NCBI GenBank assembly: GCA_030754595.1
Contig: JASLZZ010000116.1
Location: 1-62,768 of the forward strand
Source of the DNA: Nitrospinota bacterium
GTDB taxonomy: Bacteria > UBA8248
Direction: 5' to 3'
DNA length: 62,768 bases
The first letter of the stretch is position 1. Each line of letters begins with the position of its first letter. A program made the position numbers and the translations under genes. Below the pieces are notes generated by a model, which was not told the origin of the DNA, ran no database searches, and worked only from the letters and a program-made list of their open reading frames with translations. Of the stretch, positions 3,432 to 29,302 are shown piece after piece.

Positions 3432-4175
3432 CTAGGGGGCGTTTCCGGCCTCGTGCTCGATGAGGGCCGCCTTGAGCGCCACGCCCGATCCGAATCCTCC
3501 CAGCTCGCCCGAGCTGGCGATGACGCGGTGTCAGGGTATCAGGAGCGGCACCGGATTCCGGTGAAGCGCTCCGCCCACGGCGCGGACCGCGCGGGGCCGC
3601 CCGGCCTCGGCCGCCACCCATTTGTAGGAGCGCGTCTCTCCGTAGGGGATCCGCTCCGTCGCGCGGAGGACGTCGCGGCTGAAGGGGGTGAGCGCCGAGA
3701 GGTCCACCGCCAGATCGAATGTTTTCCGGCCGCCGCCGAGGTATTCGTCGATCTCCTTGAGGGCCCGGCGCGATACTTCACCCGCCCCGCCGAGATCGCT
3801 CTTGCCGTGCTTCGCCCCGCCTCCCCCCCGGAGCATCCGCACCGCCGAAACCTCGTCTCCCGAGTCGCCGACCTCTATTTCTTTCCGGACCCTGGCGATC
3901 CACTTTTCAACCACCGGGCCGGATGGTGCTGTATGTTTCATGGCGCTTTCCTCCTTTTTCGGTCTTATCGCCTCGGGGCCGTCAATCATTTCGGCGGCGC
4001 GAATTTCCCTTCTCGCCGCCAGGCCCAGCCGGTCCCGCATCCAGCTCGAAACCGGGAGCTGGGCCAGCTCCGCCGCCCGCCGCAGCGAGCCGAGAAGATC
4101 GAGAGAGACACGGATGTTCAGCGGATGCCCCAGACTTAATTTTCGCTTAATATTCACCTTAGTATCGTAACGCAA
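3432..4175 (-). CDS. ogt: selenocysteine-containing methylated-DNA-[protein]-cysteine S-methyltransferase (MGMT/Ogt), possibly with an N-terminal RHH domain; alternative start at 3941
   Basis: IPYGETRSYKWVA and RAVRAVGGALHRNPVPLLIP-TGA-HRVIASSGELGGFGSGVALKAALIEHE. The TGA (3531-3533) replaces the Cys of the PCHR motif, and the frame continues with canonical MGMT sequence to TAG at 3432-3434. Confidence 0.9.
3500..3517 (-). promoter_or_regulatory. bacterial SECIS-like hairpin for the ogt UGA
   Basis: mRNA CCAGCUC-GGGC-GAGCUGG: perfect 7-bp stem with a G-starting loop, beginning 13 nt after the UGA. Confidence 0.75.
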
Positions 4176-4234
4176 TTGGCAGTACGTATCAAGTGCGAAT
4201 TGTGGGTTTTTTTGGTGATCGGATTTTCCGGGCG

Positions 4235-4630
4235 CTACCCCGGGCTAATCGCGTCCCTCGCCCGCTCAAGCTCCAAGACTCCGGGCGGGCGCCCGCCGGA
4301 CTCGACCAGCGCGGCGTCTCCGCCCGCCAGCTCCATCCAAAGGACCGCCTCGCCGAGATCGGCGTCGGGTGAGATGCGCACCGCCCTCGCCGATGATCGA
4401 TCCTTTCCCGCAAGCACGTCCACCAACTCGCCCGCCGTCAAAAAAGTTTCCGGCGCCCGGATGCGCTCCGAAATCTCCTCTCCGCGAAGAAGCCCGATCA
4501 AACGTCCGCCCCCGGCGCACACCGCCGCCCAGGGTGCGTTTTTCCGGTTCATCGCGACCCAGGCCGCGCGCGCGTCATCCTCCGGAGCGACGATCGACAC
4601 CGCCTGCAAAAAACACTCGCGCACTTTCAT
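4235..4630 (-). CDS. CBS-domain pair protein (divergent)
   Basis: MKVRECF..SIVAPEDDARAAWVAM..GRLIGLL..LTAGELV..ISPDADLGEAVLWM..GRPPGVL fits a tandem CBS pattern. Confidence 0.7.
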   Translation of the reverse strand: MKVRECFLQAVSIVAPEDDARAAWVAMNRKNAPWAAVCAGGGRLIGLLRGEEISERIRAPETFLTAGELVDVLAGKDRSSARAVRISPDADLGEAVLWMELAGGDAALVESGGRPPGVLELERARDAISPG

Positions 4631-4682
4631 GGATGTCTCTATTTGTCCGGCGGGGAAATCTCTTTGCCGGGGGGGGGTTGGC

Positions 4683-5465
4683 CTACTCGCCCCGGAATTC
4701 GGGCTTGCGCTTTTCCTTGAACGCGGCGAGCGCCTCGGCAAAATCCTTCGTGAAATTCAGCGGCATCCGGACGGCATTCGAGAATTCGATGGCCTGGCTC
4801 ATCGGCATCCGGCTGGTCTGCTCGATGACCTTTTTCGCCCCGCGCACGCCGAGCGGGCCGTTGGCCGCGATGGAGCGGGCCAGGGCCAGGGCTTCTTCCA
4901 TCAGCTGATCGGCGGGATAGGCCCGGTTGACGAATCCGATGCGCTCGGCCTCCTCGCCGTCGAAACGGCGCGCCGTATAGATCAACTCCTTGGCAAGACC
5001 GGCGGGGATCACCCGGGGCAGGCGGACCGTCCCTCCCGCGCCGGGAAAAACGCCAAGCGCGGTTTCGGGAAAACAAAGGGTCGCATCGGCGGCGGCGAGG
5101 CGGATATCGCAGGCGAGGGAGATCTCCATCCCCCAGCCGAAGGTGTGGCCGTTGATAGCGGCGATGGTGGGCATGGGAAGATTCTCCCACCGGGTGACGG
5201 TCTCCATGCCGAGAAGTTGATACCGGTCGGCGTCTTCTTTCGTGTGGGTGGCGCTTTCCTTGAGGTCGCGGCCCGTGCTGAAGGCGCGCCCTTCGCCGGT
5301 CAGAACGACGACGCGCACTTCTTTTTCTCCGGCGAGCGCCGCGCCGAGCTCGGTGAACTCCTCGGCGAGGTTCATGCCGAGGGCGTTAAGGCGCTCCGGG
5401 CGGTTGATCGCCACCCGGGCGATACCCTCGTCAACCGCGTATTTGATCTCCGTGAATTCGCGCAC
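4683..5465 (-). CDS. enoyl-CoA hydratase/isomerase (crotonase family)
   Basis: INRPERLNAL, AFSTGRDL, AAINGHTFGWGMEISLACD, FPETALGVFPGAGG, AFKEKRKPEFRG. Confidence 0.95.
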   Translation of the reverse strand: MREFTEIKYAVDEGIARVAINRPERLNALGMNLAEEFTELGAALAGEKEVRVVVLTGEGRAFSTGRDLKESATHTKEDADRYQLLGMETVTRWENLPMPTIAAINGHTFGWGMEISLACDIRLAAADATLCFPETALGVFPGAGGTVRLPRVIPAGLAKELIYTARRFDGEEAERIGFVNRAYPADQLMEEALALARSIAANGPLGVRGAKKVIEQTSRMPMSQAIEFSNAVRMPLNFTKDFAEALAAFKEKRKPEFRGE

Positions 5466-5501
5466 GCAACTCTCCCCGAAAAATTCGCCTCCGAGTTCCG
5501 T

Positions 5502-6032
5502 TCAGTTTTTGAGCTGTCCGGCCACCTCGTCCACGAATCCGAGCGTCACCGATTTCATTTCATCGGCGCTCAGATTGCTGACCGGATGCGGAAGTTTGAC
5601 GTAGGGGTGGCCTTCCATCCCCTTGCCCTTGAACTGAAAGTCCGCCGCCGTCCTGAAGGCCTCGGTGATCACCGTGGTGGAGGGGACTCCGCGTTTCTCG
5701 AACTCAACCGTGTCGTGCACACTGCACAACGTGCAGGAGCCTCAGCCCCCGAGGGCGCATATCACCACATCGCACTGGTCGGCCATCTCCGCGATCATCT
5801 CGTCCGGAGCCGGCTTCGAGTAGTGCTCCTTGCGGCGCACGACCACTTCCTTGACGCCGTATTTCTCGCGCAGCGACTCCCCCAACGTCTCCAGGATGAC
5901 GTCGGCCTGCTCCTTGGTGTTGTCGAGAACACCGACCACTTTCCCGCTCAGGTCCGGGGGACGGGCGGCGAGAGCCACCGCCTTGCTCACGCTCCCCGCC
6001 GTGGGATCGACAAAATCCATCTTCACCGTCAT
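5502..6032 (-). CDS. UGSC-family selenoprotein (176 aa, Sec97)
   Basis: ORFs 5742..6056 and 5502..5729 are in one frame and joined through TGA at 5742-5744: CDVVICALGG-U-GSCTLCSVHDTVEFEKRGVP. Contains LSGKVVGVLDNTK and LPHPVSNL motifs; RBS AAGGAG before ATG 6032. Confidence 0.92.
5712..5730 (-). promoter_or_regulatory. bacterial SECIS-like hairpin for the UGSC UGA
   Basis: mRNA GUUGUGCA-GUG-UGCACGAC: 8-bp stem (one G-U pair) with a G-starting loop, beginning 11 nt after the UGA. Confidence 0.7.
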
Positions 6033-6239
6033 GGCATGTCTCCTTTTCGGAATCATTCAAAGAATAGGCGGCTATCATATTCCCGGGCGAAGGGGCTGTC
6101 CACTGACCGAGAGGGCCCGCCCGAAAACCTCCCCTTCTCCCGCCGGGCATTTTATGCGAAAATCCCCCTCTCGCGGGCGAGGCCGACCACCCCCCGCCGG
6201 ACACCCTCATTTCAAACGCCGATCCCATGGAGCGATGCC

Positions 6240-8501
6240 ATGCCCAGTTACGATTTGGTCGGAAAATCCAATATCCGCTACGACGCCATTCCGAAATCGG
6301 ACGGCTCGGTGCCCTACGGGGAGGACCATCTCCCCGACGGGGCGCTTCACTGCGGGGTCCTCTTCACCCCGGTGCCTTACGGCCGCCTCAAGAGCATCGA
6401 CACCGCCGCCGCCGAGCGGATTCCGGGCGTCGCGGCCGTCCTCACCGCCAAGGACATCCCCGGAAAGAATTTCCGCTTCGGCTCGAACACGGCCACCCAT
6501 GAGGGTCAGCCCGTCCTCGTCGAGGACATGATCGAGTTCACCGGCGACGCGCTCGCCGTCGTGGGCGCCGAGACGAGAGACGCCCTCGAAGCGGGCATCG
6601 CGGCCATTAAGCTCGAGATCGAGGCCCGGGAGGGGGTGTGGACCACCCGCCACGGCGATAAAAGCGCGGAGGAGCGCCGGGTCTGCGATTTCGAGGTTAC
6701 GCGCGGAGACCCCAAAGGCGCTTTCGCGGAGGCCGATGTCATCATCGAGCGCACCTACGAGACCCAGCTCGCCGAACACGCTTTCCTCGAGCCCGCCTCG
6801 GGGACCTCCTGGATCGAGGAGGACGGCGTCCTCACCATCCGGGTCGGGACCCAGCTGATCGAGTACTACCGCGCGATGGCGATGATGCTGGCCGTTCCGC
6901 AGAGCCGGGTCCGCCACCTGGGCACCTACGTCGGCGGCGGATTCGGGGCGAAGGGGATGCTCACCGTCGAACCCTATCTGGCGCTGCTGACCCACCTGAC
7001 CAGGCGGCCCGCGCACATGGCCATGGGCCGCGAGGAGGGCTTCCGCTCCACGTCGAAAAAACATCCCTTTGTGATGCGCTACCGCACCGCCGCCTCGAAG
7101 GAGGGGAAAATCCTCGCAGTCGAGGCCGACGTTATCGGCGACGCGGGAGCGTACCCCTACAAATCGAACCTGTTTCTCCTCGGCGGCATGTGCATCGCCA
7201 CCGGCCCCTACGAGGTGCCCAACGCCGAAGTCAGGTGCCACGGCTACCTCACCAACAACCCCATCACCAACGCCATGCGCGGGGTGGGCTCGAACCAGCT
7301 CTGCTTCGCCTACGAAAACCAGATGAACCTCGTCGCGGAGGCGCTGGGGATGGGCCCCTTCGAGCTCCGGCGCCGGAATTTCCTCCAGAAAGGCGGACAA
7401 CTCGTCACGGGCCAGAAAATCGAATACGGGCCTGGTCTCGAGGAATGCCTCGACGGCGCCATCAAGGCGCTCGGCGAGCCGGCCAAACCCGCCCCCGGCA
7501 AGCGAATCGGCCAGGGCTTCGCGGCCAACATCACCGGCTACGGCCGCCCCATGGACTCGGCCGAGGCGGCTGTTCACATGGAGCCCGACGGAAGCGCCGT
7601 CGTCCGGGTGAGCGCCCCCGACATCGGCGCGGGCCAGGGCGCCACCCTCCAGACCCTCGCCGCCGAATCCCTCGGTCTCAGGCTCGATCAGGTCTCGACC
7701 CGGCTCTCCGACTCGGCGTCGACGCCGCTCTCGGGCATCACCGCCGGCAGCCGTCAAACCCTAATGGCGGGCAACGCCCTGAAACTCGCCGCCGAGGAAA
7801 TCAGGAAATCCCTGGTTAAGGGCGCGGCGACGCTCCTCGAAGCCTCGGAGAACGACATCCGCCTCGGCGGGGGCGAGGCCTGGGTCTCCTCCGCCCCGGA
7901 CCGCCGCGTCCCGATGGGCCAGGCGGCGTGCGAAGCCAAAAAAATGAGAGAGTCGCTTCACTGCACCCACGGCTACAATATGCCCGGCCACGAATACGAA
8001 AACCCCGAGCGCTACATGGGCGGTTTGGGCGGCTGGGCGGACTACACCTTCGGCGTGCACGCCTCCGAGGTCGAGGTGGACATCGACACCGGCGAGGTCA
8101 ACCTCCTAAAACACGTCGCCGCGCACGAGGTGGGAATCGCCCTGAACCCCACGAGCGTCGAGGGCCAGTTCGAGGGCGGCGCGGTCATGGGCATCGGCTA
8201 CGCCCTTCACGAGGAAATGACGATGACCGAGGGCGATTGCCGCTCGCAGAGTTTTCACGAATACCTGATCCCCACTTCCTCGGACGTGGGCGATTTCAAG
8301 AACGTCGTCCTCGAGGGCGGCGAGGGCGCGGGCCCTTACGGCGCGCGGGGGGTCGGCGAGCCTCCCTGCAACAACGCGCCGGCGGCGGTGGCTCTCGCCA
8401 TCAACGACGCCATCGGCGCGATCATCTACGAGCTTCCCATCACCCCCGAGCGGGTGTTCCGGACGATTCGGGAGAAGAAAAACGGGGGTGGTGGTCACTA
8501 G
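6240..8501 (+). CDS. xanthine dehydrogenase/CoxL-family molybdopterin-binding subunit
   Basis: QLAEHAFLEP, VGGGFGAKG, AMRGVGSNQ, TAGSRQT, VEGQFEGG, GARGVGEPP. The real start is MPSYDLVGKS at 6240; the upstream part of the 1441-aa ORF is antisense shadow. Confidence 0.95.
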   Translation: MPSYDLVGKSNIRYDAIPKSDGSVPYGEDHLPDGALHCGVLFTPVPYGRLKSIDTAAAERIPGVAAVLTAKDIPGKNFRFGSNTATHEGQPVLVEDMIEFTGDALAVVGAETRDALEAGIAAIKLEIEAREGVWTTRHGDKSAEERRVCDFEVTRGDPKGAFAEADVIIERTYETQLAEHAFLEPASGTSWIEEDGVLTIRVGTQLIEYYRAMAMMLAVPQSRVRHLGTYVGGGFGAKGMLTVEPYLALLTHLTRRPAHMAMGREEGFRSTSKKHPFVMRYRTAASKEGKILAVEADVIGDAGAYPYKSNLFLLGGMCIATGPYEVPNAEVRCHGYLTNNPITNAMRGVGSNQLCFAYENQMNLVAEALGMGPFELRRRNFLQKGGQLVTGQKIEYGPGLEECLDGAIKALGEPAKPAPGKRIGQGFAANITGYGRPMDSAEAAVHMEPDGSAVVRVSAPDIGAGQGATLQTLAAESLGLRLDQVSTRLSDSASTPLSGITAGSRQTLMAGNALKLAAEEIRKSLVKGAATLLEASENDIRLGGGEAWVSSAPDRRVPMGQAACEAKKMRESLHCTHGYNMPGHEYENPERYMGGLGGWADYTFGVHASEVEVDIDTGEVNLLKHVAAHEVGIALNPTSVEGQFEGGAVMGIGYALHEEMTMTEGDCRSQSFHEYLIPTSSDVGDFKNVVLEGGEGAGPYGARGVGEPPCNNAPAAVALAINDAIGAIIYELPITPERVFRTIREKKNGGGGH

Positions 8502-8507
8502 CCTCTA

Positions 8508-8569
8508 CCGAAAAACACCCACAAAAAAGCCCCGGCTACTCCCGGGGCTTTTTTGTGGGTGTTTTTCGG
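8508..8569. terminator. bidirectional terminator / perfect 28-bp inverted repeat
   Basis: CCGAAAAACACCCACAAAAAAGCCCCGG, 6-nt loop, then its exact reverse complement; lies between convergent genes. Confidence 0.8.
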
Positions 8570-8669
8570 ATTAATTATCGGCGGGCTCCCCTACTCCTCC
8601 AAAATCCACCAGGCTTCGAGGGGGAGCGGGTCAAAGCGGTCCAAATCGCGCTGGCGGCAGTGCCGCGGC

Positions 8670-9698
8670 CTAGGCCTCGAAGCGCCGCGACACGGGGCGA
8701 CTTGCGCCGTTCCACCCGTGCATCACCGCGCTGATGGGTCCGGGGTTTCCGCCCGCGACGATGATCATGAGGTCTTCGGGCGCCTTGATGGTCGGGACGA
8801 AGAACGAGTCGTCGCCCAAATCGACCTCGATGGGCAGGTCCTTGATCCGGTCCTCAAGGTAGCCGCCGCCGGTTTTGAGCTCGCCGAGGGTCTTGCCCGC
8901 CTTCTCGTAGAGCCATTTATGAACGTCTGTCTTGCTCCATCCCGCGGCGGCGCAGATTTTCGCGTGGTCCGGGCTGATCGCCACCACCAGATCCGACCGC
9001 CTGAGGGCGTTCATGCACCCGAGGTAGGCCATGGCGTCCACCGGACCGGCGAGCAGGGTTTCGGGATCGCGGCTCATATCGTCGAAAACGAGTTTTGGAT
9101 TCTCGCAGGCGACGACGGTGACCGCGTTGTCCCCGGCGGCATGGCCCCTCGTCACCGAAAGCGTCTCCCAGGGGCTGTCGCCTTCGTTCTCGCGGATGCA
9201 GTAGGTATAGCGCGAGGGTTGAGAGAAAGTGCTCATCGAGGTGACGCCCGGAATCCCCGCTCCGAGGTTCATGAGCATGAGCCGGATCGCGCGGCCGATG
9301 GTGGCGTTCGCCCGAAAGCCCGGACCGAAACAGCCCGAGCCGCCGTGCAGGCCGATTTTCTTGGCATAGGGGCCGTTAAATATCATGAGCGGGGCGGCGC
9401 TGTGCATCGTCGCCTGAACGCCGTTTATGTTGAAGGGCGGCTCGAGGATGGCCTCGATTCCGGCGAGGACGGCCGTAAGATATTCAGGCCTGCAGCCAGC
9501 CATGACCGCGTGTGTCGCCACCATTCGGACGCTCGCCGGCTCGTTCGCGGGCGGCACCTCGCCGACGAACGCTTCCGGGTCGCGGGAGGTTCCGGTCAAC
9601 ATGTCCTCGATCCGCCCTTCGGTCGGAATGACGACCGGCAGACCGTCCGACCAGGGTTTGTCGAAAAAAAACTCGAATTCATCGTCAGGCAAAGTCAC
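8670..9698 (-). CDS. uncharacterised 'DGLPVVPPT' protein (UGSC-associated type), paralog 1
   Basis: WSDGLPVVIPT, HAVMAGCRPEYL, GCFGPGFRANATIGRA, IIVAGG; GTG start after GAAAGGA. Confidence 0.8.
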   Translation of the reverse strand: MTLPDDEFEFFFDKPWSDGLPVVIPTEGRIEDMLTGTSRDPEAFVGEVPPANEPASVRMVATHAVMAGCRPEYLTAVLAGIEAILEPPFNINGVQATMHSAAPLMIFNGPYAKKIGLHGGSGCFGPGFRANATIGRAIRLMLMNLGAGIPGVTSMSTFSQPSRYTYCIRENEGDSPWETLSVTRGHAAGDNAVTVVACENPKLVFDDMSRDPETLLAGPVDAMAYLGCMNALRRSDLVVAISPDHAKICAAAGWSKTDVHKWLYEKAGKTLGELKTGGGYLEDRIKDLPIEVDLGDDSFFVPTIKAPEDLMIIVAGGNPGPISAVMHGWNGASRPVSRRFEA

Positions 9699-9740
9699 AA
9701 TGATTTTCCTTTCCAGGCGGGACTCCTCCCGAATCAACCG

Positions 9741-10763
9741 CTAAACGGAATACGCCCGCGACACGGCGCGGCTACCGCCGTTCCAGCCGTGCATGACCGC
9801 GCTGTGCGGGCCGGGGGCGCCGCCGGCAACGATAATGTGCGAATCGGTCGGATCCTTGATCAGGGGCACAAAATAATCGTCGTTTTCGAGATCAACCGCA
9901 AACGGGAGATTCTTCATCCACTCCTCGCGCCACTGGCCCGCCCGCTTGAGGTCGCCGAGCCTTCGGCCCGCGAGCGTGCACAGGCGGCCGCGCACCTCTT
10001 CGCGAGAGAGATCGGAGCAGATGGCCGCCTGCTGGGGCGAGAGGGCGAGGACGAGATCCGAGCGCACCCACTGGTTCCAGCAGCCGAGATGCGACATCGT
10101 GTCGGCGATGCTGAAGAAAAGCTGCTCGGGGCCGCGGGCGTAGTTGTCCACCACGAGATGGGGGTTTTCGCAGGCGACCGCCGTCACGACATTTTCGCCG
10201 GACGCGTAGCCCCGGCTGGCCGAAAACGCCTCCCAGGGGCTCTCGGCCTCGTTCTCGGCGATGCAGAATGTGTACTTTGACGGCTGGCCGAAGGTGCTCA
10301 TCGAAACCACGCCGGGGATCCCCCCGCCCAGGTTCAGGAGCATGAGCCTTATCGCCCGGCCTATCGTCGCGTTCGCCCGGAAACCGGGGCCGAAGCACCC
10401 CCGCCCGCCATACAGGCCTATCCGCCGGGCATGGGGGCCGTTGACGATGAGCAGCGGCGCCGAGCTGTTCATCGAGCCCTGGAGGCCGTTGATCCCGAAT
10501 CGCTCGTCCAGGATAGCTTCCATCCCCGCCAGTACGACGGGAAGATACTCGGGCAGGCAACCGGCCATCACGGCATGCGCCGCGATACTGTGGACGTTCG
10601 CCGCCGCGAAGGCGGGGGGTATCTCGCCCACCGGCTCGTCCTGCCCGCGCGAGGTTCCCTCGAGCATCCGGGCGATGCGCTCCTCGGTCGGCGGCACGAC
10701 CGGCAGACCGTCCGACCAGGATTTGTCGAAAAAAAACTCGAATTCATCGTCAGGCAAGGTCAC
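9741..10763 (-). CDS. uncharacterised 'DGLPVVPPT' protein, paralog 2
   Basis: Same motifs; the leader and first codons are nearly identical to paralog 1. Confidence 0.8.
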   Translation of the reverse strand: MTLPDDEFEFFFDKSWSDGLPVVPPTEERIARMLEGTSRGQDEPVGEIPPAFAAANVHSIAAHAVMAGCLPEYLPVVLAGMEAILDERFGINGLQGSMNSSAPLLIVNGPHARRIGLYGGRGCFGPGFRANATIGRAIRLMLLNLGGGIPGVVSMSTFGQPSKYTFCIAENEAESPWEAFSASRGYASGENVVTAVACENPHLVVDNYARGPEQLFFSIADTMSHLGCWNQWVRSDLVLALSPQQAAICSDLSREEVRGRLCTLAGRRLGDLKRAGQWREEWMKNLPFAVDLENDDYFVPLIKDPTDSHIIVAGGAPGPHSAVMHGWNGGSRAVSRAYSV

Positions 10764-10804
10764 AGCGATTTTCCTTTCCGGGCAGGACTCCCGCCGAAGC
10801 CGCC

Positions 10805-11833
10805 CTAGACGGAATACGCCCGCGACACGGCACGGCTACCCCCGCTCCAACCATGCATCACCGCCGTCTCGGGGCCGGGGACCCCGCCCGCGACGATGAT
10901 CTTCAAATCCCCGGGGTCTTTCACGGTAGGAACGAAAAAATCATCGTCGTCCAGATCGACGGGTATCGGCAGAGAGCGCATCCGCTCCTCCCGGAAGTTG
11001 CCGCCCCGCCGAAGATCTCCCACCCGCCGGCCCGCCATCTCGAGGAGGCGGCCGTGAACGTCTTCTTTCGAAAGGCCGTCCGCGGCGCAAATTTCCGCGT
11101 GCTGCGGGGCGAGGGCGACGACGAGGTCCGAGCGCGTCCAGTTGTTCCAGCTGCCCAGGTGGGCCATGGCGTCTGCGACCGCGATCAGATAACGGCTGGC
11201 GGTGCGGCTCGTGTCGTCGAAGACAAGCTGGGGGTTTTCGACGGCTACCAGGGTTACGGCATCCTCCCCCGGACGATGGCCCAGGCTCTCCGAAAGCGGG
11301 GGCCAGGAGCTTTCCTCTTCGTTCTCGCGGATGCAAAAGGTGTAGCGCGAAGGCTGGGAAAAGGTGCTCATCGAAGTGACTCCGGGGACCCCCGCCCCGA
11401 GATTCAGGAGGATGAGCCGGATCGCACGGCCGATGGTGGCGTTCGCACGGAAGCCGGGACCAAAACAACCGAGGCCCCCGTTGATGCCGATTTTTTCGGC
11501 ATAGGGGCCGTTCACGATCATCAGCGGCGCGACGGCGTGCATGGTGGCCTGAATGCCGTTGATGTTGAATGGCCCCTCGAGCATCGCCCCGGCGCCCGCC
11601 AGGACGACGGGAAGATACTCGGGTAGGCAACCGGCCATCACGGCATGAACCGCGATATCGCGGACGCTCGCCGCCTCCAGGGCGGGGGGTATCTCGCCCA
11701 CCGGCTCGTCCGGCCCGCGCGAGGTTCCCGCGAGCATCCGGGCGATGCGCTCCTCGGTCGGCGGCACGACCGGCAGGCCGTCCGACCAGGGCTTATCGAA
11801 GAAAAATTCGAACTCGTCCGATGGATCGATCAA
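10805..11833 (-). CDS. uncharacterised 'DGLPVVPPT' protein, paralog 3
   Basis: Same motifs; TTG start at 11833 follows the RBS GGAGGTG. Confidence 0.8.
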   Translation of the reverse strand: MIDPSDEFEFFFDKPWSDGLPVVPPTEERIARMLAGTSRGPDEPVGEIPPALEAASVRDIAVHAVMAGCLPEYLPVVLAGAGAMLEGPFNINGIQATMHAVAPLMIVNGPYAEKIGINGGLGCFGPGFRANATIGRAIRLILLNLGAGVPGVTSMSTFSQPSRYTFCIRENEEESSWPPLSESLGHRPGEDAVTLVAVENPQLVFDDTSRTASRYLIAVADAMAHLGSWNNWTRSDLVVALAPQHAEICAADGLSKEDVHGRLLEMAGRRVGDLRRGGNFREERMRSLPIPVDLDDDDFFVPTVKDPGDLKIIVAGGVPGPETAVMHGWSGGSRAVSRAYSV

Positions 11834-12100
11834 CCGACACCTCCAATTCTCGGCTGAGATAGTCCACGGCTGAGGGATGAGATGGGCCGCATCGAACACT
11901 CCTCCAAAAACGCGCGGGGGCGCTTGGTTTTTTTACGGGTGACCTTTTCTTCAGAGCCAGCAATTTACCGCCCGGAAACGTAAAGCACCAGCCTCGATTT
12001 TTTTCGCGGAGGGCGTTCGTGTGGCAAAATTGCGCACGAATCAAAATAAATTCCCGGCTATCCCTCAACCATCCCCCGGCTAAACCAAGGAGCTTGATAC

Positions 12101-12487
12101 ATGCCCATTTATCCGAATTTTGGGAGCCATCCGGAGGAGGGAATCTCCTATACGGGCGCCTCCGCCTCCTGGCAGCATGGCCGGAACCTGAGCGTCGGTC
12201 TGCTGCGAGTGGAGGGCGGCGCCTTCCCCACCCCTTACTACCATAACGACGAGCAGTTTATTTATATGCTGAAGGGGCGCATTCACATCGCCAGCGGCGG
12301 CGAAATCAGCGACGCCTCCCCCGGCGATCTCGTCCACTTCCTGCCCGGCGACAACAACGAAGTCGCCGCGCTGGGCGTAGAGGTCGCGGAATTTCTCCTG
12401 AGCCGGGGCCCGGCGCGCGAAAACCCGAACGATGACGTTTTCACGCCCGAGGGCGAGGCGGCGAATAGCCTGCTCCGGGAGGAGTAG
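12101..12487 (+). CDS. cupin-domain protein with degenerate metal site
   Basis: PYYHNDEQFIYMLKG and PGDLVHFLPG cupin motifs; RBS AAGGAG. Confidence 0.7.
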   Translation: MPIYPNFGSHPEEGISYTGASASWQHGRNLSVGLLRVEGGAFPTPYYHNDEQFIYMLKGRIHIASGGEISDASPGDLVHFLPGDNNEVAALGVEVAEFLLSRGPARENPNDDVFTPEGEAANSLLREE

Positions 12488-12595
12488 AAAAATCCGTTTC
12501 CGGGGAAACAAAATGTCCCAAACCGGTGTTCTCCATGATAGACAAGCATGTCTCCGGACATTTCGGCCATTTTTCATCTTAAGGGAGGTGTTTCC

Positions 12596-13489
12596 ATGAA
12601 GCGCATCGTCGCCGCAGCCGCGCTCGCGGCCCTGCTAGCTCTGCCGGTAGCGGCCCTGGCCGCAAGGGATTTCTCGAAGGTCAAGATCAAGCCCGTCCAC
12701 GTCGGAGGGAGCGTTCACATGCTCACCGGGTCGGGCGGCAACATCGGCGTCTCTGTGGGCCCGGACGGCCTGCTGATGATCGACGATCAGTTCGCCCCGC
12801 TGGCCGAACGGATGCAGGCCGCCCTCAAGAATTTCGACAAAGGGGGCCTCAAGTTCATCCTGAACACCCACTGGCACGGGGGCCACACCGGAGGCAACCA
12901 CACCTTCAGCCGGCTGGCTCCGATCATCTCGCACACCAATGTGCGAAAGCGCCTCACCCAGACCATCAAACGCGGCAAGCGCGTCTTCAAGCCCCGGCCC
13001 AAGGAAGCGCTCCCGGTCGTCACCTTTGACGATTCGCTCTCGATTCACTTCAACGGCGAGGAGATCAGGGTCATCCATTACCCCTCCGGCCACACCGACG
13101 GGGACAGCGTGATCTTCTTCACGAAATCGAACGTCGTCCACATGGGCGATCACATGTTCTCGGGGAGATTTCCCTTCATCGACCTGTCCACCGCAGGAAA
13201 CGTCGAAGGTTATACCCGAAACGTCGCGGCGATCATGAAAAAGATTCCGGCGGGCGCCAAGATTATCCCCGGCCACGGCCCGCTGTCGGGGCTGAAGGAG
13301 CTCCGCGCGTTTCACAGCATGCTGACCGCGACAACAGAGATCGTCCGCAAGCAGATCCGGGCGGACAAATCCCTCGCCGAGGTCAAGGCGAAGGGGCTCC
13401 CTGCGAAGTGGAAGGGCTGGGCCTGGCGGTTCATCAACAAAGGCCGCTGGCTCACGATTGTCTACACGAGCCTGTCCAAGAAAAAATAA
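12596..13489 (+). CDS. secreted MBL-fold metallo-hydrolase (cyclase-like)
   Basis: Signal peptide, GGNIGVS, IDDQFAPL, NTHWHGGHTGGN, GHTDGD, HMGD, IIPGHG; RBS GGGAGG. Confidence 0.9.
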   Translation: MKRIVAAAALAALLALPVAALAARDFSKVKIKPVHVGGSVHMLTGSGGNIGVSVGPDGLLMIDDQFAPLAERMQAALKNFDKGGLKFILNTHWHGGHTGGNHTFSRLAPIISHTNVRKRLTQTIKRGKRVFKPRPKEALPVVTFDDSLSIHFNGEEIRVIHYPSGHTDGDSVIFFTKSNVVHMGDHMFSGRFPFIDLSTAGNVEGYTRNVAAIMKKIPAGAKIIPGHGPLSGLKELRAFHSMLTATTEIVRKQIRADKSLAEVKAKGLPAKWKGWAWRFINKGRWLTIVYTSLSKKK

Positions 13490-13502
13490 GCCGGGCGCAA
13501 TT

Positions 13503-13545
13503 CAAAAAAAAGAGGCGACCCTTCGGGGATCGCCCCTTTTTTTTG
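13503..13545. terminator. bidirectional intrinsic terminator
   Basis: A8, GAGGCGACCC-TTCG-GGGATCGCCCC, T8, between convergent genes. Confidence 0.8.
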
Positions 13546-13555
13546 CGCGTGCGTG

Positions 13556-14026
13556 CTATTCGTTGATGTGCCAATCGTCTGTCATCTTGCAGCCGCTCGC
13601 TCTAAAAAGGTTATAGGCCGGGCAGCGCTTCATGTAGTCCGCGTTGAGCGCCTCAACCTGTCCGGGAGTGGCGTCGATCTTCATCCATACGTCGGTCTCC
13701 GCCTCGCTCGGATTGGATTGATAGCCCTCCTGGCCCCCGACGCCGCGCGGGCTATAGACGATTGTGGATTTCACCTTCATCGACTCGATTTCGAGCTTGG
13801 CGTCCTTGGCGCACCGCTCGACGATCACCGCCGTGCACCCGGCGAGCGAAGTCACCAGATCGCCCAGGGGCGAGGGGCCTTTGTCCGAGCCCCCGAGCCT
13901 CTTGGGCTCGTCCACGATCATGGTGTGGCCGCCCTTGACGGTCACGACGCTTTTGGCGTGGCCCTTGAAATCCGCCTCCTCCCAGTTTTCCGTCGTCTCG
14001 GGCACTTCCTTTGCTCTGATTGCCAT
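13556..14026 (-). CDS. OsmC/Ohr family protein
   Basis: DEPKRLGGSDKGPSP, SLAGC and RCPAY (two conserved Cys); RBS AGGAG. Confidence 0.9.
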   Translation of the reverse strand: MAIRAKEVPETTENWEEADFKGHAKSVVTVKGGHTMIVDEPKRLGGSDKGPSPLGDLVTSLAGCTAVIVERCAKDAKLEIESMKVKSTIVYSPRGVGGQEGYQSNPSEAETDVWMKIDATPGQVEALNADYMKRCPAYNLFRASGCKMTDDWHINE

Positions 14027-14044
14027 GGGTGTCTCCTGTAAGCC

Positions 14045-15247
14045 CTAGAGTTCCGTGCCTTCTCTTAAAATCGCCAAATAGGGTTCATATGCAAAACGAA
14101 TGTTTCTCCTGAGTCCCGGTCTTCTGACTAAAAGATTCTCTTTTTCAAATTCCTTGCACAATGTCATGGCTGTCGGATAAGACACTCCCAGAACTCCTGA
14201 AACGTGATTTGCCGTTACTATCGGACTCTCAAACAACAAACCCAACAAAGAATTGGAATTTTTTCCTTTTAATTTTCCTGAGGAAGCAATTTTTCTGTGC
14301 GCTTCACGCATATCAAGAATCGTATGCGCGGTTTCCACCGCCTGCTCGGCCGTCTGGATCACGCCGTTTAGAAAAAACCGCACCCACCCTTCCCAGTCTC
14401 CCCTTTCTCTGGTTGCCATTAGCATATCGTAATACTCGTTCTGGTTTCTCTTGAAGTAATAACTAAGATACAACAGCGGACGCGCCAAAATATTCTCAAC
14501 GCCCAACATGAAGGTAATCAACAAACGGCCAATACGTCCGTTTCCGTCCAGAAAAGGATGGACTGTCTCGAATTGCGCGTGCGCCAACGCGCATCTGATC
14601 AGCGGCGGGTCTTTTTTGTTTTCGCAAAGATATTTCTCGAATTCATGGAGCGCGTTTTTCATTTCATGAACTGGCGGCGGGACATACGAGGCGGTGGCCG
14701 GCGTGGACCCGGAAGGACCAACCCAATTCTGGATTGTCCGAAATTCACCGGGGTCTTTTTCCGATCCCCGAACGCCCTCAAGGAGAATTTTGTGTATTTC
14801 ACGTATCAACCTTAGCGAAAGCGGGAAGGTGTCGATTCTCTCGAACCCATGCTCAAGAGCAAGGACATAATTTATAACCTCCCTTGTGTCGACTCTGCGC
14901 TCTCGGTTTTTTTCGTCAATTTCATATTCAAGCACATCCACCAGAGACGCCTGCGTCCCTTCGATCTGGGAGCTTAACAACGCTTCTTTCCAGACATAGG
15001 CCATCACAAACCCATCCGGGTCAGGCAGTACCGAACCCACGCCATCGAGGCGCGCTAGGGCCCTATCGGCCGACGAAAGCAGTAGCTGCAACTCGCCCTC
15101 CAGCCGAAGGGGGGGATCGAGGGGAAGCGGAGAGGGAATGAACGCGCGGTATCCCGTGGTTTGGCGAACGTATCTCCCGCCCCTGGCCTCCGTACCCACG
15201 CTACCTTGTGCCATGTCAGCCAAACTCCCAAATTTGGGATAAAGCAC
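14045..15247 (-). CDS. Fic family protein (Fic_N + Fic + C-terminal HTH); start could be 15214
   Basis: HPFLDGNGRIGR catalytic motif; SSQIEG inhibitory-helix motif; lower GC than the flanks. Confidence 0.93.
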   Translation of the reverse strand: MLYPKFGSLADMAQGSVGTEARGGRYVRQTTGYRAFIPSPLPLDPPLRLEGELQLLLSSADRALARLDGVGSVLPDPDGFVMAYVWKEALLSSQIEGTQASLVDVLEYEIDEKNRERRVDTREVINYVLALEHGFERIDTFPLSLRLIREIHKILLEGVRGSEKDPGEFRTIQNWVGPSGSTPATASYVPPPVHEMKNALHEFEKYLCENKKDPPLIRCALAHAQFETVHPFLDGNGRIGRLLITFMLGVENILARPLLYLSYYFKRNQNEYYDMLMATRERGDWEGWVRFFLNGVIQTAEQAVETAHTILDMREAHRKIASSGKLKGKNSNSLLGLLFESPIVTANHVSGVLGVSYPTAMTLCKEFEKENLLVRRPGLRRNIRFAYEPYLAILREGTEL

Positions 15248-18500: not shown

Positions 18501-19267
18501 AACGGGCGCATCTGTTTCGCCCCGAGAGCGCAATTGAGGCCGACGCTGAGTAGATTCGGGGTGTGGGCGACCGATATCCAGAAGGCGTGAGGGGTCTGCC
18601 CCGACAGGGTGCGGCCGCTCTGATCGGGGAGCGTTCCCGATATCATGATCGGAAGCCGTCGGTCGGCCTTCTCCGCCAGCGCTTCGATGGCATAGATTGC
18701 CGCCCGGCCGTTGAGCGTATCGAAAACGGTTTCGATGAGGAGGATGTCCGCCCCGCCGTCGATGAGCCCACGAATCTGCTCGGTATAGACGGCGGCGATC
18801 TCATCGAAGGTCACCGCCCGGTGGCCGGGGTTTCCCACGTCGGGCGAAATCGAGAGCGCGCGGTTCGTCGGCCCGATGGAGCCCGCGACGAACCTGGGTT
18901 TGTCCGGGTTTGTCCGGGTAAATTCCGCGCAGAGCCGCTTGGCGATTTTCGCGGCCTCGAAGTTGAGCTCATACACGAGGCCCTCCAGGGAATAGTCGGC
19001 CTGAGAGATGGCGTTCGAGTTGAAAGTGTTGGTCTCAACGATATCGCACCCAACCTCGAGAAAGGAGTGGTGAATCTCCCCGATAATTTTCGGCTGGGTG
19101 AGGGTAAGGAGATCGTTGTTTCCCTTCAGATCGCACGGGTGATCCCCGAACCGATCCCCGCGAAAATCCGCCTCTTCGAGATCGTAGCTTTGAATCATGG
19201 TGCCCGAGGCGCCGTCCAGCACCATGATTCTCTCTTTCAGAATCGATCTGAGCTCTTCAATCGGCAT
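15548..19267 (-). CDS. metH: cobalamin-dependent methionine synthase
   Basis: LDGASGT, GLNCALG, GGCCGT, IGERTNV, DVHDIG B12 motif, [12 protein letters not shown]. Confidence 0.98.
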
Positions 19268-19454
19268 CTTGTGGGGTTTCCGGTTTCCCGTGCCCGCCAA
19301 ATTTTTCGAAGCGGGCTCCGGTCGATGGACTCAAAACGGCTGAACTTTCCCACACAGCAGGAACGGGCACAACCCGGCTATTTCGGACAATTTTCCCGGA
19401 TAGGTGAGACGGATGGAGCGGCGCCACGGTGGCGCCCAGTGGAGGGGAACAAAA

Positions 19455-20063
19455 TCAGAGCGCCTTCAGGACCTCTTTGGCATGACCTTCGACCTGAACT
19501 TTTTTAAATACTTTTTCAATGATTCCCTCTTCATCGATGATGAAGGTCGTCCGGAATACACTTTTAAATTTCATGCCGTAAAGGGTTTTTTCGCCATAAA
19601 CCCCAAACTGCGTAGCGACAAGGCCATCCGGATCCGCGAGGAGGGAATACCTGAGATCGAGATTTTCGCTAAACCGCTTGTGGCTCACCTCGTTGTCGGG
19701 GCTGACACCCAGAACCGCCGCGCCCTTGGCCTCGAACTTTTTATTTTCCTTGTTGAATTCATCGGCTTCGAGCGTACAGCCGGGCGTGTCGTCCTTGGGA
19801 TAGAAATAGAGGATAACTTTTTTCCCCTGGTAACTGGCCAGACGGTGCATTTTTCCGTTCCCGTCCCGGAGCCTGAAATCGGGCGCTTTGGCGCCGGGAC
19901 TGGCGCCCTTGGGTCTTGATTTGGTCTTGGCTTTGGGTTTCGGCTTGGCCTTGGTCTTGGGGGCGGGCTTTGATTTCGCCTTTTTTTTGGCAACCGCCTT
20001 GGGTTTGGCCTTCGTTTTCAGCTTAGCCTTTGTTTTCGCTTTACTTGCAGCCTTGGCCACCAC
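19455..20063 (-). CDS. bcp: BCP/PrxQ peroxiredoxin with a ~50-aa Lys/Ala/Pro-rich N-terminal extension
   Basis: APDF, LYFYPKDDTPGCTLEA, RTTFIID; RBS GGGAGG before GTG 20063. Confidence 0.92.
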   Translation of the reverse strand: MVAKAASKAKTKAKLKTKAKPKAVAKKKAKSKPAPKTKAKPKPKAKTKSRPKGASPGAKAPDFRLRDGNGKMHRLASYQGKKVILYFYPKDDTPGCTLEADEFNKENKKFEAKGAAVLGVSPDNEVSHKRFSENLDLRYSLLADPDGLVATQFGVYGEKTLYGMKFKSVFRTTFIIDEEGIIEKVFKKVQVEGHAKEVLKAL

Positions 20064-20180
20064 CTGCCTCCCGATGGATTATCAAAAAAGCGGCCACTCG
20101 TGCCACCTTCAAAACTCACTGAAATCTATGGGATTATGGCACAGACCGGCCAAATCTTCAAGGGAGGCTTTAGATGTGGG

Positions 20181-21026
20181 CTAAACGCCCCAATCGCGGG
20201 CATATCTGAAGTCGCGGTCAATGGTTCTTTGGCTGACCTTGGCGATGAGCGGAAGGCGCCTCTTGTACTGGCTTCTCTGGATCAGGCGAAGGATTCCATC
20301 CACCACTTCGGCGGCGAAACCCTTCTCCAGGATTTCCGCCCGGTCATAACGGTGATCGATGAGATAGTGAAGGACGGAATCGACCTCCTCGTAGGTAAGG
20401 CCCAGCTCTTCCTCGTCCGTCTGGCCCGCCCACAAGTCCGCGCTCGGCGGCTTGTCGATAACCCCAGCGGGAACGCCCACATGTCTCGAAATTTGTCTCA
20501 CCTGCGTCTTGAAAAGATCCCCGATGGGGTTCACCGCGCTGGCCATGTCTCCAAAGAGCGTTCCGTAGCCCAGGAGAAGCTCGGTTTTGTTGCTCGTTCC
20601 CACCACCAGGGCGCTGGCGGCGGCGGACTGATCGTAGAGGATGGTCATCCGCTCGCGGGACATCTTGTTGCCCCGCCTGAGGTTCGTCGCGTCCGGATAT
20701 TTGTCGAAATAGGCGTCCACCTGAGGCGTAATTTTCACCCGCTTGAAGGTGATCCCGCAGGCCTTCGCCACCTCGCGCGCATCCGCCTCGCTCTGGGGAT
20801 TCGAAAGACGGTAGGGCATGCATATGCCCCAGACATTCTCCGGCCCCATGGCCTGCGCCGCCAGGAATGCCGAAAGGGCGCTGTCGATCCCGCCCGAGAG
20901 GCCGATAACGATTTTTTCCATTCCGACCTTGCTCACTTCGTCCCGGATGAACCCGACCAGCAATTTTGTCGTCAGGCGGGCGTCCATCTCAAGCTCCGCC
21001 AGGCTCTCGTTCACCAGGTCTTTCAT
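20181..21026 (-). CDS. nadE: NAD+ synthetase, synthetase domain only
   Basis: [46 protein letters not shown]. Confidence 0.95.
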
Positions 21027-21243
21027 CTGAAACGGCACTGCGTCTCTCCTCGATTCGGGTGACCCATAGTGGTCGGTATCATGCCGTCTCGCCAAGCCCC
21101 CCGCAAGAGAGTCGTCCGCAACATAGCCAACCGTTGCGGAACCATGGGCCCGGCGAGGATTGACCCCCCGCCTGCCAGGCTTTAGGTTTCCGGGGAGCCA
21201 ACCCTCCCGGCGAAAAATTCGCTACTTCAATCAAGGAACCGCC

Positions 21244-22017
21244 ATGCCCCTTATTGGAAATATCGAAGACCTCAAATGGAATTACGAGGAGGAGGCCAGC
21301 GGGGGATCTAAATCTCCCATGCTGATCAATACGCTGCATCTCGAGGTGCGCATCATCGTTCTCGCGCCGGGGCAGTGCCCGCCCTACCACCGTCACCACA
21401 AGGAAATGGACGAGGGCTATCTGATTCGGCAGGGGCGCGGCCTCTTGACCATCGACGGCGAGAAATTCGAGGTCCGCGCGGGCGATGTGCTGCTCGGGAA
21501 GAGAGGCGGCTACCATAACCTCCTGAACATCGGGGACGAGGATCTCATCGAATTCAACTTCAGGGGCGGGAAAATGCCCTCGGGCTTCATTGCTCCGGAA
21601 GACGACGGGGAGACCCCGGGAGTGGATGTCTCCGGCGGGACTCCTGGAGACGGCTACATACGGCGGAATATCTTTGACGAGCCATCCGAGAGCGTCCCCG
21701 ACAACGAGCAGGAGACCGGAACCCCGAATGTCTTTGCGACGGAGTTTCTCGAGCTGTTCGCCTTCTCCCGCCAGAGCGGCGACCGGAACCAAATTCACCG
21801 CCACCAAGAAGCCTTGGACGAGGCGGCTTATCTTGTCCGGGGCGAAGGCAGGATGATCTTTCATATCGACGGCGAGGACATCGAGGCCGCCGAGGGGGAC
21901 CTGATTCACATCCCCGGCGGCTCCTGGCACCACGTCAACAGAATCTCCGATGGCGATTTGATCGTTCTCAATTTAAGGGGAGGGGCGCTTCCCTCCGCCA
22001 ACCAGTGGGGAAAATAG
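21244..22017 (+). CDS. tandem cupin-domain (bicupin) protein
   Basis: HRHHKEMDEGY..GDVLL..YH and HRHQEALDEAAY..GDLIHIPGGSWH. Confidence 0.85.
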   Translation: MPLIGNIEDLKWNYEEEASGGSKSPMLINTLHLEVRIIVLAPGQCPPYHRHHKEMDEGYLIRQGRGLLTIDGEKFEVRAGDVLLGKRGGYHNLLNIGDEDLIEFNFRGGKMPSGFIAPEDDGETPGVDVSGGTPGDGYIRRNIFDEPSESVPDNEQETGTPNVFATEFLELFAFSRQSGDRNQIHRHQEALDEAAYLVRGEGRMIFHIDGEDIEAAEGDLIHIPGGSWHHVNRISDGDLIVLNLRGGALPSANQWGK

Positions 22018-22040
22018 GCCCCTCGGGCAAGGGAGGTATC

Positions 22041-22430: not shown

Positions 22431-22442
22431 AAGGAGTCTCTC

Positions 22443-22838: not shown

Positions 22839-22995
22839 TGGGGTTTTTCATGAGCGGTCTTTTTGAATAACAAGCTCCAGGTGGCTTCCAGCGAGGAGCC
22901 GGCGGGGGTTTTTGAGGCAGGCCATACATACGCTGGAGAGCGGCTGGCGAGTGATTCAAGAATTTCTGCCGAACCCCAAGACGCTTTTTTTAAGA

Positions 22996-23730: not shown

Positions 23731-23784
23731 TTCTCCCTCCAGTAAAACACGAGGGCCGGGGGGACGACGACGGAAACTTATGTG

Positions 23785-29255: not shown

Positions 29256-29302
29256 TAATTTTCCTCCGCTAACCGATCAAATAATTTTCAGGGGGACGCG
29301 TT

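Follow-up and report, generated by a model that had tools for sequence, protein, structure and literature searches.

A predicted UGSC selenoprotein and a three-gene array of its conserved partner family in a Nitrospinota bacterium

The locus described here occupies positions 3432 to 11833 of a 62,768-nucleotide (nt) stretch of DNA from a Nitrospinota bacterium (GenBank assembly GCA_030754595.1, contig JASLZZ010000116.1, forward strand), and this whole stretch is hereafter called the window. The locus contains a gene for a selenoprotein of the UGSC family, followed on the same strand by genes for a crotonase, a small CBS-like protein and a second predicted selenoprotein of the Ogt type. It also contains a gene for a molybdopterin-binding subunit of the xanthine dehydrogenase (XDH) family and a tandem array of three paralogues from a large protein family, which we refer to as the partner family. 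An earlier interpretation made from the letters of the DNA only (the sequence-only reading) had presented these genes as an undescribed selenium/molybdenum redox locus. Here we report a solid, conserved link between the partner family and UGSC, together with a distant resemblance of UGSC to selenoproteins of the glycine reductase type. Our analysis suggests that the core of the locus is probably, although far from certainly, a thioredoxin-linked two-subunit selenoenzyme in which one UGSC protein serves several large subunits. By contrast, the molybdenum (Mo) subunit, the crotonase, the CBS-like protein and the selenocysteine-containing Ogt form a lineage-specific syntenic block and are not part of a universal system.

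The genes and short elements of the locus, in order along the forward strand, are as follows.

3432–4175, minus strand: gene for an Ogt/MGMT-type alkyltransferase with predicted selenocysteine (Sec) at the active site; 59-nt gap after the CBS-like gene
4235–4630, minus strand: gene for a small CBS-like protein of 131 amino acids (aa); 52-nt gap after the enoyl-CoA hydratase gene
4683–5465, minus strand: gene for a crotonase-family enoyl-CoA hydratase/isomerase (ECH); 36-nt gap after the UGSC gene
5505–6032 (or to 6056), minus strand: UGSC selenoprotein gene; 176 aa from the ATG at 6032, with an earlier ATG at 6056
5712–5730, minus strand: hairpin resembling a selenocysteine insertion sequence (SECIS), starting 14 nt after the UGSC TGA; 8-bp stem and GUG loop
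6074–6102, minus strand: promoter-like site upstream of the UGSC gene (TGGACA, 17 nt, TATGAT; 10/12 matches, a consensus match only)
~6240–8501, plus strand: gene for an XDH/aldehyde-oxidase-family molybdopterin-binding large subunit, divergent from the UGSC gene; domains PF01315, PF02738 and PF20256
8515–8562, no single strand: bidirectional terminator-like hairpin; 20-pair stem with 12 G–C pairs, T-runs on both strands
8670–9737, minus strand: open reading frame (ORF) of partner paralogue 1, last in the tandem array, with its own orthologues in other genera
9741–10763, minus strand: partner paralogue 2, 340 aa, with the DGLPVVPPT, AVMAGC and RANATIGRA motifs and the cysteine of C..ENE
10805–11899, minus strand: ORF of partner paralogue 3, first in the tandem array; translation probably begins near 11830

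The sequence-only reading had described the minus-strand string as UGSC, enoyl-CoA hydratase, CBS protein and RHH–Ogt. The gene order and both selenocysteines were borne out; the CBS label corresponds to a sub-threshold match (E = 0.039), which reaches 14.7 bits where PF00571 has a cut-off of 24, and the RHH label found no support, as residues 1 to 100 of the Ogt protein had no Pfam match at E values up to 10. The XDH-family subunit, described as divergent from this string and convergent on three tandem paralogues with the DGLPVVPPT motif, was confirmed in its orientation and in its domains (PF01315, 2e-16; PF02738, 3e-65; PF20256, 1e-63). The three minus-strand paralogues are separated by gaps of 3 and 41 nt, and the terminator-like hairpin sits between the array and the XDH gene that converges on it. 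The UGSC gene lies 2.6 kb from its three paralogues, with the opposite-strand Mo gene in between, and the promoter-like site falls within the divergent spacer common to UGSC and XDH. With a predicted bidirectional terminator after the array and a promoter-like site for UGSC, the array and the UGSC gene look like separate transcription units. Exact matches among metatranscriptome contigs, from two runs of one study, covered only the UGSC region (5472–6044, one contig reading through the TGA) and a 218-nt piece of the XDH gene; none bridged UGSC to the crotonase gene, and such contigs show neither strand, level nor co-transcription. At the DNA level, an 8.6-kb stretch occurs nearly unchanged in marine metagenomes, in which 18 runs from 10 studies contain at least half of the sampled words; one of these runs may be the source of the DNA.

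The in-frame TGA of the UGSC gene is located at 5742–5744 and is read as U in GGUGSC, and that of the Ogt gene is located at 3531–3533, within IP-U-HRV. The family profile matches extend across both codons, and we infer that both encode selenocysteine in members of known selenoprotein families, UGSC and Ogt. At related loci, the UGSC position is TGA in 67 of 70 motif-covering matches and cysteine in 1. All 120 of the listed database relatives of UGSC are pieces of 96–117 aa that match the part before the TGA, and the remark in the sequence-only reading that standard gene callers fragment such selenoprotein genes is therefore correct. To analyse the hairpin downstream of the UGSC TGA, we aligned 39 nt from the TGA of the window and of 65 homologous genes of related loci, which gave a gap-free alignment of 66 sequences (63 distinct). 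In this alignment, 93.1% of the cells are paired, compared with 86.3 ± 0.6 in shuffles, and six of the eight pairs have changed on both sides, including one that switches from C–G to G–C in 13 sequences; none of 500 shuffles matched the observed value on any of five measures. The single-sequence folds after the two TGAs are no more stable than shuffles (z = −0.23 and −0.57), and the weight lies entirely with the alignment test. Downstream of the Ogt TGA, a 7-bp hairpin was seen as a single-sequence fold.

A comparison with metagenomic and metatranscriptomic contigs singled out the same element. The 33 nt at 5712–5744 comprise the Sec codon and the SECIS hairpin and encode UGSCT.CSVHD, and many contigs that otherwise differ from the window match it, in both DNA and RNA runs, over this stretch only, with two to three differences. 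These 33-nt-only matches fit strong constraint on 5712–5744. An Rfam scan of the whole window returned no family at the gathering score. The components that such decoding calls for, and the maturation genes of selenium-dependent Mo hydroxylases that the sequence-only reading would place elsewhere in the genome, were all found: selB (364 bits), selA (552 bits), selD (345 bits) and tRNA-Sec (73.6 bits) score above their cut-offs, with selA and selB both on contig C113, and yqeB and two yqeC-type genes are present on a contig other than that of the window. The selD gene (contig C16, 24543–25505) itself carries one in-frame TGA, and SelD is therefore probably a selenoprotein too.

The UGSC protein of the window is a full member of its family, matching PF24696 over residues 15–182 with 180 bits against a cut-off of 25 (4e-53) and NF041046 with 147 bits against a cut-off of 125, and the U/C-G-S-C motif is kept in all 35 aligned homologues. 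The predicted structure (pLDDT 94.2) is an alpha/beta sandwich in which a strand leads directly into a helix that has the Sec residue (residue 97) at its start. In a Foldseek search with this model, the best matches were flavodoxin-like or Rossmann-like, with TM scores of at most about 0.5, and no thioredoxin was among the matches listed; the predicted fold thus looks flavodoxin-like and not like a clear thioredoxin fold. A sequence search of solved structures with UGSC found nothing better than E = 0.26. Of 35 full-length UGSC homologues, 28 match the GrdB family TIGR01917 (best E = 6.5e-6), and the same set includes 22 matches to GrdF, 14 to GrdH, 13 to TIGR01918 and 6 to PrdB. The match of the window protein to GrdB is borderline (E ~0.009) and falls over the Sec-bearing segment, GrdB positions 330–404. 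These profile matches make UGSC distant kin of the Sec-bearing part of GrdB, GrdF, GrdH and PrdB.

The three partner paralogues of the window share 63–67% pairwise identity and have no Pfam or NCBIfam match. Their family is large: a search with paralogue 3 of a database clustered at 90% identity yielded 7817 relatives at E ≤ 1e-3 among 8000 scored candidates, mostly of ~341 aa, covering ~93% of the paralogue 3 ORF and labelled hypothetical, and a library of representatives at 50% identity holds at least 4,910 matches at E ≤ 1e-3, with 1,145 at E ≤ 1e-30. Among 70 diverse members, none matched Pfam at E ≤ 0.01, and no NCBIfam family was matched by more than one member at E ≤ 1. The near-invariant residues include DGLP..PPT, the cysteine of AVMAGC, R.N...GR and a second cysteine in C..ENE, and all three window copies retain the conserved residues of the family. 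The AlphaFold2 model of paralogue 2 was obtained with a pLDDT of 94.5 and a pTM of 0.93. A comparison of the partner profile with the sequences of solved structures gave a best E of 0.35, and on the model-based searches the family has no clear solved fold. The best Foldseek matches were class I fumarate hydratases, at E = 1.7e-3 but with a TM score of only 0.27 and an rmsd of ~17. In a VIA-align search across 48,161 chains, the highest Z was 5.6 (none reached 8), and the matches covered residues ~200–330 only. Fumarase, PrpD and Toblerone-fold matches from these fold searches were not taken as relatives.

To examine the genomic setting of the partner family, we surveyed the neighbourhoods of the best 80 of 607 confirmed partner relatives in one-genome-per-species contigs from many phyla. 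A UGSC match is present at 69 of the 80 loci, always on the same strand, and in 67 of them it lies within 250 bp of the partner gene (downstream in 55, upstream in 12). In other phyla, one partner gene accompanied by one UGSC gene is the arrangement at most loci. Clustering all neighbouring ORFs of the 80 loci detected no widely shared neighbour besides UGSC; the next most widespread non-antisense cluster occurs at 14 loci, in related Dehalococcoidia-type genomes. A search of 61 genomes (the window's own plus 37 from its order, 7 from its class and 16 further ones) found both families in exactly the same 39 genomes and neither in the remaining 22. All 150 listed UGSC matches from this search contain one TGA. 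Since related genomes are not independent, we read this 39/22 division as a pattern and not as a test. The genome of the window has six partner genes and three UGSC genes, and the ratio in relatives is close to 2:1. Two of the six form canonical adjacent pairs with UGSC, on contigs C109 and C84, and three are the window array, with the single UGSC gene of the window. These counts fit the proposal in the sequence-only reading that one UGSC protein serves several large subunits.

The two families are also joined within single proteins. In a survey of 48 long proteins picked from 150 listed representatives of the partner family, 26 carry UGSC, either N- or C-terminal to the partner domain. Among proteins of 516–564 aa, 11 of 15 have a whole UGSC domain ahead of the partner domain, and among those of 414–453 aa, 12 of 15 begin with the portion of UGSC downstream of the Sec codon, as expected of gene calls that start after the TGA. 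In three proteins of ~460 aa, the partner domain comes first and is followed by a UGSC domain cut at profile position 92, just before Sec. Because these pieces are cut at the TGA, many of the fusions are selenoproteins. The sequence-only reading had noted an association between proteins of the DGLPVVPPT/AVMAGC type and UGSC, and adjacency on the same strand, fusion in both orders and shared occurrence all uphold it. Together, these observations establish a conserved link between the paralogue family and UGSC, and the two may form a physical complex.

Further fusions connect the partner domain to other redox proteins: two to AhpC/Redoxin, one to FeThRed_B, the catalytic chain of ferredoxin–thioredoxin reductase, and one to a thioredoxin-reductase-like Pyr_redox_2 domain. 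Several partner proteins have N-terminal heads that by eye are thioredoxin-like, with CxxC. The thioredoxin- and peroxiredoxin-like heads (L062, 9560–11011, plus strand; P0154, P0244, P0182 and P0209) share a PGCGS(R/K) stretch before the partner domain, and this linker may be an extra redox or docking motif. The variety of fusions bears on an account in which UGSC is a dedicated thiol/selenol–disulfide oxidoreductase, substituting for thioredoxin by keeping the partner's cysteines reduced or by turning the partner on and off, with selenium never touching the substrate and the partner acting alone as the enzyme or as a redox sensor. Fusion of the partner to thioredoxin-like, peroxiredoxin-like, ferredoxin–thioredoxin reductase and thioredoxin-reductase-like domains suggests interchangeable electron donors, as this account would have it, and the two near-invariant cysteines of the partner and the lack of the redox motif in some fused UGSC domains agree with it. 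However, the sole detectable kin of UGSC are protein-B selenoproteins, in which Sec acts on the substrate. Moreover, Sec occupies the position in 67 of 70 cases, which is unusually strict for a mere disulfide reductant, and the predicted structure is flavodoxin-like rather than a clear thioredoxin fold. We therefore consider a purely disulfide-reducing UGSC unlikely.

The array raises the further question of why three partner copies stand with one UGSC gene. In a tree of 35 partner sequences, in which four of the nine regions available for the best-sampled genus were used, each array position groups with its counterparts in other genera, and the array duplications are therefore older than these genera. 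Such old, position-specific orthologues, kept together across genera in arrays of three to five copies, could together build one hetero-oligomer to which a single UGSC docks, instead of being alternatives for different substrates, and the tight spacing of the window genes (gaps of 3 and 41 nt) and the existence of double-domain family proteins of ~710 aa are compatible with this. Against it, the single partner gene with one UGSC at most loci of other phyla indicates that a homomer suffices, the window copies all retain the conserved residues of the family, and the copy number of the arrays varies from 1 to 5 among relatives. An obligate mixed assembly of this kind seems doubtful to us.

We favour the reading in which the locus encodes a thioredoxin-linked two-subunit selenoenzyme, and because UGSC is akin to the GrdB-type proteins we propose a mechanism modelled on them. 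The three tandem paralogues would be alternative (or co-assembling) large subunits that bind the substrate, with the conserved cysteines of AVMAGC and C..ENE, and the 176-aa UGSC protein would be the small subunit common to all three. By analogy with GrdB, the UGSC selenol would attack either the substrate bound to the enzyme or an intermediate that the large subunit carries on a cysteine; the nearby cysteine would then resolve the intermediate to a selenenyl-sulfide, which a thioredoxin-type donor would re-reduce. Fusion, adjacency and co-occurrence carry the pairing of the paralogues with UGSC in this scheme; the gene structure, the Sec decoding signals and the distant homology to GrdB-type proteins are likewise observed, whereas a physical complex, the reductase chemistry, the electron donor and the class of substrate are inferred. 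The neighbouring XDH, crotonase, CBS-like and Sec-Ogt genes may hint at carboxylic acid or CoA ester substrates in this lineage.

Several observations weigh against this reading. Eleven of the 80 loci have no UGSC within reach, and a contig end (within 250 bp of the gene) explains only two of them; these 80 are also the closest to the query in similarity, and related genomes are not independent. In the window's own genome, the partner gene on contig C50 has no neighbouring UGSC. Several fused UGSC domains lack the U/C-x-x-C motif, so UGSC could be partly structural. The window UGSC scores 15 bits against a TIGR01917 cut-off of 602, and such weak GrdB scores, far under the family cut-offs, therefore point to distant kinship and not to membership. 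Finally, among the 70 diverse partner members compared with Pfam and NCBIfam, the family has no detectable relation to GrdE or PrdA, so the parallel with GrdB may stop short of the chemistry.

We next consider the wider locus. The nearest public record, a metagenome-assembled genome (MAG), has an identical gene order, with 85–98% protein identity. For comparison we turned to other genomes of the taxonomic family to which the window belongs and used 20 regions, mainly places with UGSC near partner genes and thus not a random sample. In 17 of the 20, UGSC and the ECH gene are adjacent and are followed by Ogt. An XDH orthologue (69–85% identical) is divergent from UGSC–ECH in 13 of the 20, spanning five genera, and in 12 of those 13 it also lies between UGSC–ECH and the partner array; in one, the block is turned round. 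Four regions, all from one small-genome genus, have the order partner–UGSC–ECH–...–Ogt without XDH, and one of them keeps an 80-aa XDH remnant; this genus has lost the Mo gene, which is dispensable there. Of the remaining regions, two have only a distant partner–UGSC pair and one has only a triple array. The partner arrays hold one to five copies. One genus has a second crotonase, and an acyl-CoA dehydrogenase is present in the string of its one region whose extra ORF was scanned.

In relatives, the space that separates the array from XDH is occupied by restriction-modification genes, BREX pieces, an ABC transporter or other unrelated genes, and the boundary between array and XDH is therefore loose. 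These inserts include an NgoFVII-type restriction enzyme with a C5 methylase and Vsr, an Eco57I-type methylase, BrxC/D pieces and the ABC transporter (region L119, 7262–9655; L120, 9700–11899; L126, 8101–11120; L121, 1586–6498), and the spacer looks like an insertion hot spot. Outside the family, we counted genes within 10 kb at 79 loci, with one near-identical locus set aside. XDH-like genes occur at 4 of the 79 (23–30% identity), crotonases at 9, Ogt at 1 and CBS-like genes at none. The link to Mo-dependent and CoA-ester chemistry as stated in the sequence-only reading thus did not hold generally: it is kept only within the window's taxonomic family, and XDH has been lost in one genus even there.

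The other partner loci of the genome have different settings. One adjoins a family III CoA-transferase and an FAA hydrolase. In the region of contig C84 at 31000–48000 (~7945–14129), the partner–UGSC pair is followed directly on the same strand by genes for an SdhA-like flavoprotein, an SdhB-like Fe–S protein and a class I fumarase C-terminal-domain (Fumerase_C) protein. In the region of contig C50 at 19000–36000 (7700–11916), the lone partner gene converges on a molybdopterin oxidoreductase of the dimethyl sulfoxide (DMSO) reductase family, with a TctABC transporter nearby; this convergent Mo enzyme echoes the convergent XDH of the window. We read these settings as no more than a faint pointer to carboxylic-acid metabolism.

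The XDH protein does not reach any of 13 NCBIfam equivalog cut-offs, including those of PucD, XdhA, the alpha subunit of 4-hydroxybenzoyl-CoA reductase and the selenium-dependent XDH class (best TIGR03196, 400 against 784 bits). No Fe–S or FAD subunit gene flanks it, the scanned window ORFs contain neither Fer2_2 nor FAD_binding_5, and in the 13 related regions no such subunit gene stands alongside XDH where the gaps were scanned. Across contigs C39, C62, C98, C69, C35, C137, C30, C105 and C116 (the last being that of the window), the genome has 11 XDH-family Mo subunits (~750–870 aa) and only three Fer2_2 ([2Fe-2S] small-subunit) genes, these three all on contigs other than that of the window. 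A lone Mo subunit is therefore the rule in this genome and not a mark of the locus. The ECH protein matches PF00378 (1.8e-59, 201.6 bits against a cut-off of 27) and reaches no equivalog cut-off, the best being PRK07657 (245 against 363 bits). The CBS-like protein is kept in genomes of the same family with 49–72% identity, and the ESM Atlas places it at 0.93 to CBS clusters, with 171 shared features. The Ogt protein matches PF01035 over residues 164–243 (5.5e-31) and exceeds the TIGR00589 cut-off of 46 bits with a score of 102, with U at the cysteine position of the P-C-H-R motif. Its acceptor codon in the same-family regions is TGA in 15 of 17 and cysteine in 2 of 17, an interchange of Sec and Cys. 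The extra N-terminal part of ~88 residues could be aligned only in three regions of the window's genus and in one other genus.

These data bear on an integrated Se/Mo pathway, in which the Mo hydroxylase, the crotonase (joined in some relatives by an acyl-CoA dehydrogenase), UGSC and the paralogue array would act on one class of substrate, for example by hydroxylation of a heterocycle or acid, reductive cleavage and CoA-ester processing. Such a pathway would account for the same-family synteny (XDH divergent from UGSC–ECH in 13 of 20 regions, UGSC–ECH in 17 of 20), the second crotonase and the acyl-CoA dehydrogenase of one genus, the partner loci near a CoA-transferase, SdhA/B-like and Fumerase_C genes and a DMSO-reductase-family Mo enzyme, and the yqeB and yqeC genes. 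It sits poorly with the rarity of XDH-like genes (4/79) and crotonases (9/79) outside the family, with the lack of any conserved neighbour besides UGSC in the clustering, with the genus that keeps partner, UGSC, ECH and Ogt without XDH (one member having the 80-aa remnant) and with the unrelated genes inserted between array and XDH. In addition, XDH lies on the other strand, behind the bidirectional terminator, and lone Mo subunits are common in the genome (11 versus 3 Fer2_2). We judge a pathway integrated in this way improbable. Similarly speculative, and in our estimation improbable as a whole, is the broadest form of the favoured reading: a new class of thioredoxin-driven selenoenzymes in non-clostridial marine and soil bacteria, the pyruvoyl-free counterpart of the glycine and proline reductases, with one Sec subunit and interchangeable large subunits that set the substrate, in which, for this lineage, the genes of the array would combine with those of the lone Mo hydroxylase and of the crotonase/acyl-CoA dehydrogenase into one reductive breakdown route for a carboxylic acid or heterocycle.

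Beyond these genes, an OsmC-like gene (13556–14026, minus strand; NF041052, 'OsmC-related (seleno)protein', 68 bits against a cut-off of 95, with no TGA) and a small cupin gene (12101–12487, plus strand) flank the paralogue array, and in the chosen same-family regions OsmC is found beside the array in 7 of 20 and the cupin in 11 of 20. Farther along the window, two Fic-domain genes and a D12-class adenine methyltransferase gene (14045–15247, 23785–24975 and 25139–26002, all minus strand) lie between the locus and a set of replication-origin genes comprising parAB, mnmG/E, yidC, dnaA (40076–41464), recF and gyrB/A.

The near-obligate partner, the thioredoxin-type fusions and the relation to GrdB make the function of UGSC testable, and the organic-acid and CoA-ester gene context of this lineage could guide a search for the substrate. 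A 2026 review (PMC13188914) describes the functions of such selenoproteins as largely uncharacterised, in agreement with the statement in the sequence-only reading that neither UGSC nor its partner has an assigned reaction. In ocean metagenomes, the UGSC family is listed with the most abundant selenoproteins, and 255 Sec sequences were counted in the Global Ocean Sampling (GOS) data (PMC2398784).

Among the closest known systems are glycine, sarcosine and betaine reductase (GrdB, GrdF and GrdH) and D-proline reductase (PrdB). In both systems, a small Sec protein, here UGSC and there GrdB, GrdF, GrdH or PrdB, is paired with a larger substrate-binding protein, and Table 2 of PMC2398784 enters the PrdB family with a UxxC Sec motif. 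They also differ: the GrdB model has 431 positions whereas UGSC has ~176 aa, the partner family of UGSC has no detectable similarity to the pyruvoyl partners GrdE and PrdA in the profile comparisons, and the carriers of UGSC and its partner that are named in the records are mostly non-clostridial MAGs (Nitrospinota, Chloroflexota and Burkholderiales), whereas the known glycine- and proline-type reductases belong to fermenting anaerobes. The grd operons carry trxA and trxB, which the thioredoxin-type fusions of the partner family would parallel.

Two of the neighbours also have counterparts. The window XDH shares its three Mo-subunit domains with the Mo hydroxylases of the XDH/aldehyde oxidase family, which include the selenium-dependent ones matured by YqeB and YqeC, genes for which are present in the genome, but it has no adjoining Fe–S or FAD genes, falls below the equivalog cut-offs and is on a different contig from yqeB and yqeC. 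A Sec-containing Ogt is already listed as a rare selenoprotein family: methylated-DNA-protein-cysteine methyltransferase with Sec appears with ABB14497.1 in PMC9312934 and PMC13188914, and as one GOS read in PMC2398784. The window protein resembles these in its PF01035 domain and in the replacement of the acceptor cysteine by Sec, and differs in its extra N-terminal part of ~88 residues and in that a whole taxonomic family retains the Sec form, with its gene closing the string that starts at UGSC.

The system itself had been described before. Zhang and Gladyshev (2008; PMC2398784) reported the UGSC family and proposed a thioredoxin-like fold and a possible redox role, and Fig. S1A of that paper prints a fusion of UGSC with a domain termed 'Unknown_1', whose alignment shows the same AVMAGC block as the partner family. 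The figure lists Hyphomonas neptunium and Sulfitobacter, and one of the related loci used here (L087) comes from a Robertmurraya chromosome. As both selenoprotein families of the locus are listed in PMC2398784, and again in PMC9312934 and PMC13188914, the label 'undescribed' does not apply. The window proteins agree with that description, the UGSC protein having the UGSC motif and scoring above both family cut-offs and the paralogues having the AVMAGC block. In the available text of PMC2398784, UGSC/Unknown_1 is reported only in fused form, from metagenome reads and from a few genomes, whereas the window has separate genes with three large subunits to one UGSC, and the UGSC fold predicted here is flavodoxin-like where a thioredoxin-like one was proposed in 2008. 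The near-obligate pairing, the other redox fusions and the kinship with GrdB go beyond the 2008 description. The window is thus a further example, with an unusual layout, of a known but uncharacterised system, and adds a case in which one UGSC protein probably serves several old paralogues.

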